In this document: positions 11,769 to 19,501 of the stretch, piece by piece
Layout of the letters: the number at the start of each line of letters is the position of its first letter
How positions within the stretch are numbered: the first letter of the stretch is position 1
Assembly: GCA_964650515.1 (NCBI GenBank)
Contig: CAZYUB010000009.1
Location: 25,093-89,092, forward strand
Direction: 5' to 3'
DNA from: an uncultured Planctomycetia bacterium
Lineage (GTDB): Bacteria > Omnitrophota > Gorgyraeia > Pluralincolimonadales > Pluralincolimonadaceae
DNA: 64,000 bases
Notes under the pieces: generated by a model
The model's database searches: none
The model's input: only the letters and a program-made list of their open reading frames with translations
Told to the model about the DNA's origin: nothing
Translations under genes and position numbers: made by a program

Positions 11769-14264
11769 ATGTTAAGGGAAAGGAAGGGCGTCGCGCTTAT
11801 AATCACGGTAGGCGTGTTATCGCTCATGGCGATACTTGCGACGTCTTTCGCCTATAATATGATGTTCGACCTCAAGGGCTCGGCGAACCAGGTATTCAAG
11901 ATGAAAGCCAAGAACGCCGCCGATGCCGGAATAGCCCTCGCGATCGCCTATATGCGCAACCTCGCCCAAACGGATTTTAACGCCGTACCGACGGCGTCAT
12001 GCGATTGGGACTATACGAGCGCGTCGAGCCCGTCTTTCGACGCGCGCGACGGGGCCGCGAACAATTCCACAAGCGGCTCCCTCGGTAATGTCGGCCGTAA
12101 CAGCATAGCCGTATACTCGCTGAAAGTTGTCGACACCAACTCGCAGATAAACGTCAATGACACGAATCCCAATTTAAGGAATATCCTCGGCAATCTTGCG
12201 GAGGTCCTCGGCCTCGCGAGGTCGGACGGTGAAGCTATCGCCGACAACGCAAGCAGGCCGTTCTCGACGAAAGAAGAAGTGATGACTTCGACGGGGTGGA
12301 CAACCGCGAAATATGCCGTGATCAGGGATTTTATAACCGTGAACGGCTATTTCGACGACAACAGCGAGGATTCCACCGCCCCGGTCCCATTCGGGCCGGG
12401 AAGTTACCAGAGGAAGGCGCCGGTAAACATAAATACCGCGAGTTCCGAGGTCCTGCAGGCCGTCCTAAGGGGAGTGATCACCGACGCGCAGGCGGCGGAC
12501 CTTGCGGCCACTATCATCGTCCAGCGTGGCATCGCCCCTTTCAGGGGATGGAATGGAGTGTCGGCGGCGGGCGGTTTTGACGATTTTATTGACAATGTTT
12601 CAATAACACCCGCGCTCGGTTTAACCGACAGGGCGAACATAAAAAATAACGCCAACCCTAACAGGATAAAGCCCTCGACGAGCACCACGGACTTCTGCTT
12701 CAACCCTGGCGGATACTTCGAGATGACATCCTCCGGGGCGACGGGCATTGACGCCAATTCAGACGGGGACCTTTCGGATATGATCGACATGGTATCGGCC
12801 AGGTGGGAGACCGTTGCGGTCGCCAGGATATACGAGGTCCTGAATTATACGACAAAAGAGCAATTCCGCGGTGAGGACGCCAATTATAACGGTATATTGG
12901 ATCCGGGCGAAGACAGGAACGGCAACGGCGTCCTTGACCTGCCTGTTTTTTCGAGGGTGACATGGCTGAATTCGTGCCCCGTCCTGTCCACCGACGACCA
13001 GGGGCTTGCTTATAGCGCGAACTATTCAACGGTACCTAATTCGTTAAAACTCGGCTTCTGGGATGATTTCGACGAAGACAACGACAATGTCAACAAGAAC
13101 GGATACAGCTGGTCGAACTGGCAGCAGCAGAACGGGATATTGAACATAACGGACAGCGACGCTGACGGCGAATGCGAGATGTGGGGCTCAGGATGGCCGA
13201 AATTCGCGCTGGCTGATACCGGCAGATGGACATTCGGCAACACATTCTCTTTCCGCATCTCCTTAAGGCCATCCCCGGGAGGCGACGGGTGGGAGGATTC
13301 CGGGCATATAGATTTTTCGTGGGCGGGCCAGGTCAAGGGGAAGCTGTGGACGCAGAATTGGGGTTTCCAGTATGCCCCGAGAAGGGATATAACCCGTCCG
13401 GGATGGACGGTCGCAAATGATTCCGCCACAAGCGAACCGTCGTCGGCAAGAGAGGGCAAGGATTTCGCGGACAGCAAAGTGCTGCTGCATATGTGGAAGA
13501 ACAGCCCCGCATTAAGGAACGAGAGAAGCTATAACCTCGGGTATCTTTACGGGCTTAGCGACCCCCAGCTCAACCATTATTTTGATTACACAACGACCTC
13601 AGGCGACCAGGGTTCCGAGCAGTTCCATGGCGTATGTCCTGTTAAGGAGACCCTGAAGCTTGTTGTCAGCAACGCGCAGAGCCCCAATTACCGCGTGTAT
13701 CTCGCAGTAGGGCAGGGTTGGCACAGGTATTATAACTTCAGTAACGGATGGTTCCTGAGCAATGTGGGTTTCAGCCCGGTGACCACTACTTATGTCATGA
13801 TACCGTTCCATGCCGACGCGTCGAACGAACTCAAGCGCGACAGGTACGGTTTCTGGACTATAACTAATAACGACCTTAACAGCTGGCAGCTTACGCAATG
13901 GTATACGGTCCTTTACGGGAATAACGCTTCCCCGAAATGGGATGAGCTGAGGATAATATCGTCGGACGGCACATACCGCTGCCCGACTTTCATGGCCGGC
14001 GAGAACGTAAGATGGGGGACTGTATCCTGGACAACGACTATACCGTCAACCGCTAACGCGTCATCCGAGCAGGTCTCGATGCAGGTTGACACGGGCACCG
14101 GCGCGGGGGCGGTATCGAAAGACGGCCCGATAGGAGGCGTTTCTGCTGGCGCGGCTTTTATCGCGACGTTTTCGAGCAATAACGCCGATTACGCGGAGAC
14201 GCCGGTCCTCGAAGACGTAACGTTGACCTATCTTCCGCCGGTTGAGATCGTATACCATAAATAG
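11769..14264 (+). CDS. Giant GspK-like pseudopilin paralog 2 (831 aa) with tandem EF-hand-like Ca-binding loops
   Basis: N-terminus RKG|VALIITVGVLSLMAILATSFA has no Glu+5. PVNINTASSEVLQAVLRGV resembles the GspK HhH-like motif. DANYNGILDPGE + DRNGNGVLD loops. Shared motifs SLKLGFWDDFDEDND and WLNSCP. Confidence 0.7.
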   Translation: MLRERKGVALIITVGVLSLMAILATSFAYNMMFDLKGSANQVFKMKAKNAADAGIALAIAYMRNLAQTDFNAVPTASCDWDYTSASSPSFDARDGAANNSTSGSLGNVGRNSIAVYSLKVVDTNSQINVNDTNPNLRNILGNLAEVLGLARSDGEAIADNASRPFSTKEEVMTSTGWTTAKYAVIRDFITVNGYFDDNSEDSTAPVPFGPGSYQRKAPVNINTASSEVLQAVLRGVITDAQAADLAATIIVQRGIAPFRGWNGVSAAGGFDDFIDNVSITPALGLTDRANIKNNANPNRIKPSTSTTDFCFNPGGYFEMTSSGATGIDANSDGDLSDMIDMVSARWETVAVARIYEVLNYTTKEQFRGEDANYNGILDPGEDRNGNGVLDLPVFSRVTWLNSCPVLSTDDQGLAYSANYSTVPNSLKLGFWDDFDEDNDNVNKNGYSWSNWQQQNGILNITDSDADGECEMWGSGWPKFALADTGRWTFGNTFSFRISLRPSPGGDGWEDSGHIDFSWAGQVKGKLWTQNWGFQYAPRRDITRPGWTVANDSATSEPSSAREGKDFADSKVLLHMWKNSPALRNERSYNLGYLYGLSDPQLNHYFDYTTTSGDQGSEQFHGVCPVKETLKLVVSNAQSPNYRVYLAVGQGWHRYYNFSNGWFLSNVGFSPVTTTYVMIPFHADASNELKRDRYGFWTITNNDLNSWQLTQWYTVLYGNNASPKWDELRIISSDGTYRCPTFMAGENVRWGTVSWTTTIPSTANASSEQVSMQVDTGTGAGAVSKDGPIGGVSAGAAFIATFSSNNADYAETPVLEDVTLTYLPPVEIVYHK
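12873..12938 (+). other. Tandem EF-hand-like Ca2+-binding loops (DANYNGILDPGE-DRNGNGVLD) in giant paralog 2
   Basis: Matches the canonical EF loop pattern D-x-N-x-N-G-x-(I/L)-x-x-x-E. A second copy of the motif lies in paralog 3 at ~16745-16807. Confidence 0.55.
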
Positions 14265-14272
14265 GAGAAGAG

Positions 14273-15466
14273 ATGCGGGAGCATAAACTATTGGCCTTTA
14301 CCTCATTGCTATCGGCCGCCATCCTATGCCTGGGTGCGACGCAGGCGGACATTATAGTGCTCAAGGACGGGGGAGAGAAGATAGGCGGCAGGATCATCGA
14401 GGAGAGCGATACCCATATAACCGTAAAACTTAAGTCCGGCGGCAAGAGCACCTTCCCGAAGGCGTGGATCAAGGACATTAAGAAAGCGGAAGTGCCGGAG
14501 GGGGAGCTTTACACAAAACAGGATGTATACCTGTCGAAACTCAAGACGCTTGACCCAAAGGATGCCGAGGCGCAGATGCATATAGCGAAATGGTGCTTCG
14601 ATAACGCCACCGAGGATAACGGGCTTTTTGAGATGGCCGACAGGCACTATAAGGCGGCAAGGGATATCGACCCCAAATACGCCGAAAAGGTCGGAAAGGA
14701 GCTTGCCGCGGCGCAGGAGAAAGAGGCGGGCAAACTCTTTTCCGTCGCTGAGACCGAATATAAATGGGGCGAGTATTTCAAGGCCGAACAGATGGCGGTA
14801 TCGGTGATCTCGCTGTATCCGGATACCTCTTTTGCGGGAAAGGCCAGGGGGCTTATAAATAAGATCTGGGGCAATGCCAGGGCGCCCAAGATATTCGATA
14901 ACCCGCAGAACCTTCCTGAAATCGTATTCACGGTCGAAGAGATGCAATCCGTGCTTTCGCATATGGGCACGGAAGAGCGCAAGCAGGCGTATTTCATGAA
15001 GTGCCTTGACCGCGGCATAGATTATGAAGAGAGGGCGGAGGAGGTCGATAAGGACAAGAGGGGCGGGTATTATATGGCGGCGATAGCGTGCTATGACATA
15101 GTCTCCGGTTCAGCCTCCGGCCCGGTAAAGAAATCCGCCGACTTCAAGATGCAGGGGGCATTAAGGAAATATTTTGACAGCAAACCGGAGCCGTTCAGCG
15201 ATGCCCGTTACGCGCTGATGGCCGGTTATATACTTAAGATACAGGACCCGCCTTATATAGAAAAGCTTACTGCCCAGTATTCCAAACTTGGCGACGAGTT
15301 GCTGAAGAAAGCGAAGAGGATGAAACAGCCGGAGAAAGCCGAAAAGGCCAAAACCGCGTATTTCTGTTTCTCGATAGTGAACAATTATTCAAAAGACGAA
15401 ATGATAAAGCAAGATGCCTTCGAAAAAATGATCGAATGCCAGCGCTTGGAGAGAGCACGCAAGTAG
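14273..15466 (+). CDS. Secreted ~400 aa partner protein A (small N-terminal beta domain + helical TPR-like body; conserved C-terminus …MIECQRLERARK)
   Basis: Signal peptide MREHKLLAFTSLLSAAILCLGATQA. No family recognised. Paralog at 18217-19425 in the same position after a giant GspK-like gene. Confidence 0.55.
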   Translation: MREHKLLAFTSLLSAAILCLGATQADIIVLKDGGEKIGGRIIEESDTHITVKLKSGGKSTFPKAWIKDIKKAEVPEGELYTKQDVYLSKLKTLDPKDAEAQMHIAKWCFDNATEDNGLFEMADRHYKAARDIDPKYAEKVGKELAAAQEKEAGKLFSVAETEYKWGEYFKAEQMAVSVISLYPDTSFAGKARGLINKIWGNARAPKIFDNPQNLPEIVFTVEEMQSVLSHMGTEERKQAYFMKCLDRGIDYEERAEEVDKDKRGGYYMAAIACYDIVSGSASGPVKKSADFKMQGALRKYFDSKPEPFSDARYALMAGYILKIQDPPYIEKLTAQYSKLGDELLKKAKRMKQPEKAEKAKTAYFCFSIVNNYSKDEMIKQDAFEKMIECQRLERARK

Positions 15467-15498
15467 AAGTATAAAATCTTGCTTTTGAAAAGAAATAT

Positions 15499-19425: not shown

Positions 19426-19459
19426 CGGTGTCAAAATCTTGCTTTAGAAAAAGAAATAA

Positions 19460-19488
19460 TTGACAACCGGGTGCTAATTTTATAGAAT
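19460..19488 (+). promoter_or_regulatory. Duplicated sigma70-like promoter TTGACA-N17-TAGAAT upstream of the gspL-like gene
   Basis: TTGACA at 19460-19465, 17 nt spacer, TAGAAT at 19483-19488. The predicted transcription start is only ~6-8 nt before the ATG at 19502. Confidence 0.45.
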
Positions 19489-19501
19489 ATACGCAAGCCA
19501 T

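Follow-up and report, generated by a model that had tools for sequence, protein, structure and literature searches.

GspK, the tip pseudopilin of type II secretion systems, is a protein of about 330 amino acids (aa) and lacks the Glu5 of other pilins. Alternative or duplicated tip complexes are represented by PilC1 and PilC2 of Neisseria and by the three minor-pilin/PilY1 clusters of Myxococcus xanthus. The allele groups of Pseudomonas aeruginosa pilA with its accessory genes and of its minor pilins, as well as capsule and O-antigen loci, are diversity loci which are replaced via conserved flanks. Here we analyze a pilus-like locus in a stretch of 64,000 nucleotides (nt) from an uncultured Omnitrophota bacterium (contig CAZYUB010000009.1, positions 25,093 to 89,092); this whole stretch is called the window. 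The locus carries two consecutive modules, each composed of a gene for a very large GspK-like protein (K1, K2) and a gene for an exported partner protein (P1, P2). The intergenic junctions behind P1 and P2 are designated J1 and J2. The Omnitrophota, which have not been cultured, are for the most part ultra-small bacteria. Almost all of them possess type IVa pili, for which a role in host-cell attachment was proposed (PMC10066038). No description of the duplicated K/P module was found in that publication.

Taken together, the data make it likely that the two modules are paralogous GspK-lectin tip modules, each with a TPR-like partner, and that they are subject to allelic replacement by homologous recombination at conserved boundaries and to module loss. 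Eleven related Omnitrophota loci, all on contigs from metagenomes or metagenome-assembled genomes (MAGs), served for comparison. Further two-module loci, given as four, are L001, L002 (= L024, L013) and L008 (= L009, L012). L002 and L024 are 100% identical over 19.9 kb, and L008, L009 and L012 match each other. Single-module loci are either of the K1/P1 type (L003, L004, L014, L015), of the K2/P2 type (L017, L018, and L022, which is 100% identical to L023 over 16.2 kb) or of more distant types (L007, L010, L019, L020, L021). Only 14 clusters in a set of 5.8 billion proteins make up the very small family of the partner protein; the K family comprises 44 clusters.

When the window is compared with L001 and L008, 85-97% identity is observed throughout the locus except for positions ~16795 to 19380, where nt identity drops from ~90% to 40-55%. 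The left breakpoint (~16795) is located directly after a GEDANGNG motif in the middle of K2. The right breakpoint (~19381) is located 14 codons ahead of the P2 stop; from there on allele A, present in the window, equals allele B, present in L001, and immediately upstream the two are unrelated. The clearest pair is L022 and L008, which share 96.2% in the N-terminal half of K2 and 95.7% in 9 kb of right flank, yet 50% nt identity in the cassette in between. At the protein level P2 is 41-43% identical between genomes in which PilM is 97-98% identical, and the PilM-PilN fusion protein retains 95-98% aa identity across two-module genomes. The backbones which carry the two alleles are 88-96% identical.

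In the flanks dS, the synonymous substitution rate, is 0.07-0.13. Between alleles of the cassette the proportion of synonymous differences (pS) is ~0.8, i.e., saturated, and the ratio of nonsynonymous to synonymous rates (dN/dS) within an allele class is 0.04-0.10. Thus, the alleles are ancient and under purifying selection. On the basis of these values, obtained as a test for positive selection, a recent rapid diversification was rejected in favor of old alleles. Further, the trees are in conflict: in those of PilM and of the N-terminal half of K2 the window groups with L001 and L008, in those of the C-terminal half of K2 and of P2 with L022, L002 and the sister lineage L017. L017/L018 possess an allele-A-type module as their sole module. 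The cassette therefore exists as at least two ancient alleles which were exchanged between closely related genomes, and the locus displays what characterizes allelic diversity loci, i.e., deeply diverged alleles in closely related genomes, sharp breakpoints, and a cassette phylogeny at odds with that of the flanks. The sequence-only reading of the window had suggested a cassette exchange at the module boundaries. Indeed, the breakpoints are at conserved boundaries; the exchanged unit is the distal two thirds of the module and not the module as a whole.

A second hypervariable block, encompassing the C-terminus of a 986-aa PA14 protein and a beta-helix gene, is situated upstream of K1. The BLAST alignment with L001 breaks there; aa identity is 50-57% to L001, L002 and L008 and 74-87% to L022. 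Variability is weaker over 6300-10080. Compared with L001, L002 and L008 the GspG-like pseudopilin is 78-83%, the PA14 protein 50-67% and the beta-helix protein 51-57% identical in aa sequence, as against 92-100% for neighboring genes. L022 shares the window's versions of these three proteins at 74-97%. Across both variable blocks the allele combinations X+A, Y+A and Y+B are encountered. In this comparison one row for the C-terminal half of K1, which had been translated in a wrong frame, is disregarded.

Whole modules can be lost as well. In the single-module locus L022/L023 the context of K1 (L008-like ATGCCAAGGGATAGGAAAGGCG) is matched from the beta-helix gene upstream of K, across the junction between the genes, to codon ~8 of K. 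Beyond the shared GGCGTCGCGCTTAT the sequence is K2-type (82-97%). The stretch shared at the crossover is ~14 nt in the alignment. This is the footprint of a crossover between the 5' ends of K1 and K2 by which K1, P1, J1 and the untranslated region (UTR) were removed. The other single-module relatives are of two kinds: L017/L018 share with L022/L023 the K2/P2 type only, L003, L004, L014 and L015 possess the K1/P1 type only. Either a different copy of an old duplication was lost in each kind, or the two-module state arose as a combination of two allelic types.

One metagenome sample (JGI 3300029288) holds at least three versions of the locus: the two-module L002, the single-module K1-type L005, and L025, which has an allele-B-like K behind an intergenic spacer. 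A MAG with the locus-tag prefix WC512 contains pieces of two of these versions (P0005, P0020) and may be a strain mixture.

The tandem duplication itself, which the sequence-only reading had noticed, is real. The two modules have the same order, with K1/P1 at 11769-15466 and K2/P2 at 15620-19425. K1 and K2 are 48% identical in aa sequence (BLASTP). P1 and P2 are diverged as had been stated, with 43% identity by BLASTP in place of the estimated 35-40%. Since the two-module layout recurs in four further independent assemblies (L001, L002 = L024, L008/L009/L012) and the two copies share only 50-70% DNA identity, the duplication is not an assembly artefact.

The last 12 codons plus stop of P1 and P2 do match in 38/39 nt, and this 39-nt sequence occurs at two sites only within the window. 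An exact TTGACA, a 17-nt spacer and a -10 hexamer are present at both junctions (15499-15527 and 19460-19488); these are the two top-scoring sigma-70-like sites between 5 and 24 kb, with 11/12 matches each. Near-identity over ~75 nt behind the stop codon, as claimed earlier, is not borne out: stop to -35 matches in 33/40 positions, the spacer in ~6/17, the -10 in 4/6 (44/63 in total from stop to -10). Similarity of J1 and J2 ends at the -10, with none downstream. When the modules are aligned with each other an identity spike emerges at the junction, the best 40-nt window being 38/40 at 15428/19387 and the best 100-nt window reaching 81% against 52% overall. The spike is modest, as other windows (K N-terminus, GEDANGNG motif) reach 35-36/40. 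At conserved amino acids P1 and P2 use identical codons at 11/12 positions in the last 14 codons compared to 38% in the gene body (binomial p = 2e-4). For the P2 tail the values are 13/13 and 46% (p = 4e-5). Thus, protein constraint alone does not account for the spike.

How were the module ends shaped? Module 1 was compared segment-wise with sequences of the K2 type and with L014/L015, its orthologues of the K1 type, and the differences in distance were subjected to a column bootstrap; Biopython bootstrap-consensus trees had been discarded because of an implausibly uniform support. In the first ~390 nt of K the distance is 0.292 to the K2 type and 0.337 to the orthologues (bootstrap probability of being closer to the K2 type 0.98). 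In the interior it is 0.37-0.49 and 0.26-0.32, respectively (0.00), and in the last 42 nt of P 0.137 and 0.305 (1.0). The conserved or homogenized ends around diverged interiors, proposed on inspection, are therefore statistically real; only in these two end segments is module 1 nearer to its paralogue. The 3' tract, consisting of the last ~14 codons and an A/T-rich element, is clearly younger than the split of the paralogues. The K1-type orthologues L014 and L003 are without the A/T element and have many synonymous changes in the tail. Among two-module genomes the P1 tail drifts at background rate. We thus infer a single recombination or conversion event in their common ancestor and no continuing homogenization.

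A recent, window-specific conversion from J2 to J1 was considered and rejected. The P1 tail of the window differs from that of L001 at 8/39 nt and from its own P2 at one; from L008 it differs at 4/39, which is background divergence. These comparisons support only an older conversion event, ancestral to the two-module clade.

The intergenic part of the junctions was compared across lineages. All single-module relatives have, behind the partner gene, the succession TTGACA, 17 nt, a TAGAAT-like hexamer, ~13 nt and the ATG of pilM. TTGACA and -10 of J2 are conserved in 12/12 aligned sequences, including single-module lineages with a PilM only 67-90% identical, and J2 is the best-conserved stretch of the locus (94-100%). 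L001, L002 and L008 retain the two hexamers and the A/T element of J1, and the sequence of the 17-nt spacer differs between genomes, a pattern as expected of a working promoter. The sequence features of a sigma-70-type promoter, i.e., -35 and -10 hexamers, 17-nt spacing, conservation across lineages and a variable spacer, are present. TTGACA-N17-TAxAxT is thus best regarded as an ancestral internal promoter-like site ahead of pilMN which was duplicated along with the module. Its presence in single-module relatives implies that ordinary functional constraint accounts for much of its conservation. The A/T-rich element of ~34 nt is present in J1, J2, L017/L018 and L020, is weaker in L019, and is absent from L003, L004, L014, L015 and L007, in which TTGACA directly follows the stop codon. 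When genomes are compared, intergenic J1 parts cluster with J1 and J2 parts with J2, i.e., by orthology and not by genome; hence, the intergenic parts are not in ongoing concerted evolution.

These data bear on the strongest competing explanation, in which the likeness of the junctions derives wholly from purifying selection on a promoter with an UP-like element and on a conserved C-terminus, after an old duplication with slowly evolving ends and without any conversion. All of the P family shares the C-terminal motif ECQRLER at the protein level, -35 and -10 are kept in every lineage, and the grouping of J1 and J2 by orthology is as this explanation has it. However, it leaves the excess of identical codons in the P tails unaccounted for. 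In the K1-type orthologues L003, L014 and L015 only 1-3 of 10-11 of these same codons are identical, the tail codons drift at background rate among J1 copies, which argues against a nucleotide-level constraint on the tract, and the P1 tail is nearer to its paralogue than to its orthologues. Selection as the exclusive cause is therefore improbable. The junction likeness would rather have three additive causes: protein conservation at the P C-terminus, promoter constraint, and a short, younger recombination or conversion tract.

A programmed intragenomic variation of the pilE/pilS type, in which the modules or hidden silent copies would exchange their interiors at high frequency through the junctions, is very improbable. 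Conserved ends do surround diverged interiors, and the cassette is truly replaced between related genomes. Yet both modules are complete, intact genes, and purifying selection prevails within allele classes. The 64-kb window contains neither a silent copy nor a third copy of either junction half, metagenome contigs scanned for the junction yielded the known J1/J2 sites only and thus no new alleles or silent copies, and a scan of the species genomes for the partner protein located copies only within this cluster. There is no G-quadruplex (G4) motif near the locus; the only one that the window contains spans 29704-29729, at a distance of 10 kb. Further, the interiors of K1 and K2 are no more alike within a genome than between genomes, and module 1 is stable, with 87-96% aa identity across genomes (K1 89-96% between two-module genomes). 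That the mosaic is an artefact of strain-chimeric metagenome contigs joined at conserved stretches, and the L022 deletion a mis-join, is hardly credible even though the breakpoints coincide with conserved stretches at which assembly graphs can switch paths, because the structures recur in independent assemblies and samples (L002 = L024; L008, L009, L012; L022 = L023), the ~14 nt of the L022 crossover are too short for a k-mer mis-join, divergent alleles exist whatever flank they join, and L017/L018 carry an allele-A-type module on its own.

Several points weigh against our interpretation of paralogous tip modules with allelic replacement and module loss. The data consist of metagenome assemblies only and comprise five distinct genomes of the two-module clade, including the single-module L022. 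Assemblers can switch strains within conserved stretches, which are the breakpoint sites, and the linkage of allele and backbone rests on assembled contigs. The mosaic signal at the 5' end is old and weak (0.292 vs 0.337), with synonymous sites near saturation (pS 0.58-0.68), and a higher rate of evolution in the L014 lineage could account for it. The tract in the tail is only 45 nt long. The functions of K and P, their binding to each other, and the promoter activity of J1 and J2 are predictions. Lastly, the data do not formally distinguish repeated exchange from an ancient balanced polymorphism with lineage sorting.

What kind of proteins are exchanged? K is predicted to be a GspK-family minor pseudopilin, with the N-terminal half as pilus-incorporating core. 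Pfam T2SSK (PF03934) matches K1 with 24.3 bits (cutoff 24.2) and K2 with 22.8 bits, below the cutoff, in each case over only ~50 residues; a PilX_N match of K1, with 17.7 bits, is below its cutoff of 25.5. The N-terminus is a prepilin-type hydrophobic helix without Glu5 (KKG/VALIITVG) and with Ile at position +5 (K1 MLRERKG/VALIITVGVLSLMAILATSFAYN, K2 MNKRRKKG/VALIITVGILALLAMIATSFAYN). The structure model of K displays a GspK fold followed by ConA-like lectin domains, and the genomic context is that of GspK: the same cluster encodes further pseudopilins, GspE/F, an assembly platform and a secretin. The C-terminal half probably consists of one or more ConA-like lectin beta-sandwiches and would be the receptor-binding part; more distant K homologues have Laminin_G_3 or PA14 domains instead. 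The model of P is TPR-like. Because P is always inherited with the lectin half of K in the same cassette, we infer that it is a cognate partner, i.e., a Sec-exported periplasmic chaperone or assembly factor rather than a second adhesin. The sequence-only reading had envisaged a swap of tip-adhesin specificities. A tip adhesin fits the predicted structure of K; a change of specificity would take place at evolutionary timescales and not by a programmed switch.

The coordinates of the individual elements are compiled in the table.

Table. Elements of the duplicated K/P locus and its surroundings (positions in the window; functional assignments are predictions)
Element	Position	Strand	Description
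Second hypervariable block	10080-11625	+	C-terminus of 986-aa PA14 protein and beta-helix gene
K1	11769-14264	+	831 aa, predicted GspK-family minor pseudopilin with large C-terminal extension
P1	14273-15466	+	397 aa, predicted exported partner: signal peptide, small five-strand beta domain, TPR-like helical solenoid
P1 tail	15422-15466	+	last 14 codons and stop (EKMIECQRLERARK, then stop), paralogue-like tract
J1	15467-15527	+	A/T-rich 32-nt element 15467-15498; -35 TTGACA 15499-15504; 17-nt spacer; -10 TATACT 15522-15527; predicted promoter for K2-P2
Palindrome	15579-15594	+	ATGCCC-TCGT-GGGCAT in predicted 5' UTR of K2, downstream of J1
K2	15620-18220	+	866 aa
K2 N-terminal half	15620-16795	+	aa 1-392, predicted GspK core, conserved between genomes; left anchor, ends at GEDANGNG
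Variable cassette	16796-19380	+	lectin-like C-terminal half of K2 (16796-18220) and P2 (18217-19380, minus last 14 codons); allele A in the window
P2	18217/18229-19425	+	partner gene of module 2
P2 tail	19381-19425	+	last 14 codons and stop; right anchor of cassette
J2	19426-19501	+	A/T-rich 34-nt element; -35 TTGACA 19460-19465; 17-nt spacer; -10 TAGAAT 19483-19488; 13 nt, then pilM ATG
PilM-PilN fusion	19502-21100	+	Pfam PilM_2 7e-33, PilN 1e-9; first gene of the assembly/secretin block behind J2

The window contains, from 1.5 to 26 kb, a single plus-strand cluster for a type II secretion/type IVa pilus-like machine. The order is two GspE, GspF, a GspG-like major pseudopilin, two more N-methyl pseudopilins (one GspJ-like), the 986-aa PA14 protein, a 331-aa beta-helix protein, K1, P1, K2, P2, the PilM-PilN fusion, two unknown proteins, a TPR/N0 protein and two secretin-domain proteins. 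polA and housekeeping genes are located downstream. Named homologues are from Candidatus Omnitrophota. The head of the cluster (1527-4972) encodes, in tandem, two GspE/PilB-type ATPases of 569 and 577 aa, both with MshEN domains. Toward its end (23662-25895) two neighboring genes of ~370 aa each encode Secretin_N plus Secretin, preceded by a separate protein with TPR and N0/STN (22541-23659); the secretin looks split or duplicated rather than encoded by one long gene, and this arrangement is kept in all related loci. An Rfam scan of the whole window at gathering threshold returned 0 matches.

K1 adjoins the upstream beta-helix gene and is without a promoter of its own. For K2 the start at 15620 is preferred: its equivalent is chosen by gene callers in related loci, and the ATG at 15530 is located inside the predicted transcription start or upstream of it. 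A scan for terminators detected none at the junctions. The conserved -10 TAGAAT of J2 is only ~13 nt ahead of the pilM ATG, without a Shine-Dalgarno sequence, and this stretch (19489-19504) is 98-100% identical across two-module genomes; if J2 is the promoter, pilMN would be transcribed into an almost leaderless mRNA. A palindrome (A)TGCCC-YCGT-GGGCA(T), with a T-run ahead of it, is located upstream of K in 9/9 lineages aligned, and its nine central positions (GCCC, CG, GGG) are invariant in all nine. It is found between the beta-helix gene and K in L014, L015, L017, L021 and L025. In single-module loci a separate promoter-like site, TTGAWT-N17-TAWAKT, follows ~13 nt after the palindrome and is lost in two-module genomes. 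The palindrome may be a binding site of a regulator; it does not constitute a terminator on either strand. A riboswitch or structured leader in the 5' UTR of K2 was dropped as a candidate, the RNA fold being no more stable than shuffles (z = 0.11).

The following course of events would accommodate these observations. The J1/J2 element would originally have been the promoter-like site of pilMN and the secretin genes. Since it was duplicated together with the module, it is now positioned as J1 ahead of K2-P2 and as J2 ahead of pilMN; K1-P1, which lack such a site, are presumably read through from the upstream pseudopilin genes. Homologous recombination is anchored at the 5' end of K, at the GEDANGNG motif halfway through K, and at the P tail together with the promoter. 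Through these anchors cassette alleles are swapped between genomes, and a whole module can be lost by crossover between the K1 and K2 5' ends. The binding specificity of the tip may thereby be altered over evolutionary time, with no programmed intragenomic switch involved. A more far-reaching proposal is that the conserved module ends are kept as a recombination scaffold on which lectin tip and cognate TPR partner are shuffled within and between species and modules are stacked or dropped. This is conceivable, but rather doubtful. If true, such a scaffold would be the cellular counterpart of cassette exchange in phage tail fibres and would set to which host cells the nanobacterium attaches.

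The locus singles out those parts of the pilus which are likeliest to contact the host: the GspK-lectin tip subunit, the co-inherited TPR partner, and the upstream PA14/beta-helix pair. Ancient alleles of these parts are exchanged between genomes up to ~96% identical, and whole modules are gained or lost. This yields testable candidates for determinants of host range and a defined pair of breakpoints which can be followed in metagenomic time series.

With regard to known systems, K shares with GspK/XcpX (GspK-GspI-GspJ, PDB 3ci0 and 5vtm) and with minor pilins of the PilX/PilK type the helix without Glu5 and the gene context, in addition to the borderline Pfam T2SSK and PilX_N matches. It differs in being ~2.5-3 times longer (the solved chains of GspK/XcpX have 259 and 280 residues). 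Its C-terminal ~470 aa are predicted ConA-like lectin or GH16-like beta-sandwiches, which GspK does not have, and, unlike GspK/XcpX, K exists as a tandem pair, each copy with a dedicated gene for a TPR-like partner. PilC1/PilC2 and the M. xanthus clusters are similar in that several sets of tip adhesins serve one pilus machine and the paralogues have diverged in the exposed part. In contrast to PilC/PilY1 the adhesin domain is here fused to a GspK-like minor pilin and is not a separate protein. In addition, the paralogues are in tandem and share a copied promoter-like element; phase-variable repeats were not seen at the locus. Neisseria pilE/pilS is alike in that short conserved sequences bound variable segments of pilus genes. 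The present locus is without silent promoterless copies and without a G4, both copies are complete, and evidence of transfer within a genome was not found.

With allelic loci of the P. aeruginosa type the locus shares deeply diverged alleles at one position in closely related genomes, sharp breakpoints, a conflicting phylogeny of the cassette, and the lack of genes of mobile elements. Diversity loci with conserved recombination anchors are well known, and the locus does not represent a new type of genetic mechanism. It departs from the P. aeruginosa type in that both breakpoints are inside coding sequence, that the exchanged unit is half a gene plus a nearly entire partner gene, and that the host belongs to an uncultured, probably host-dependent nanobacterial phylum.

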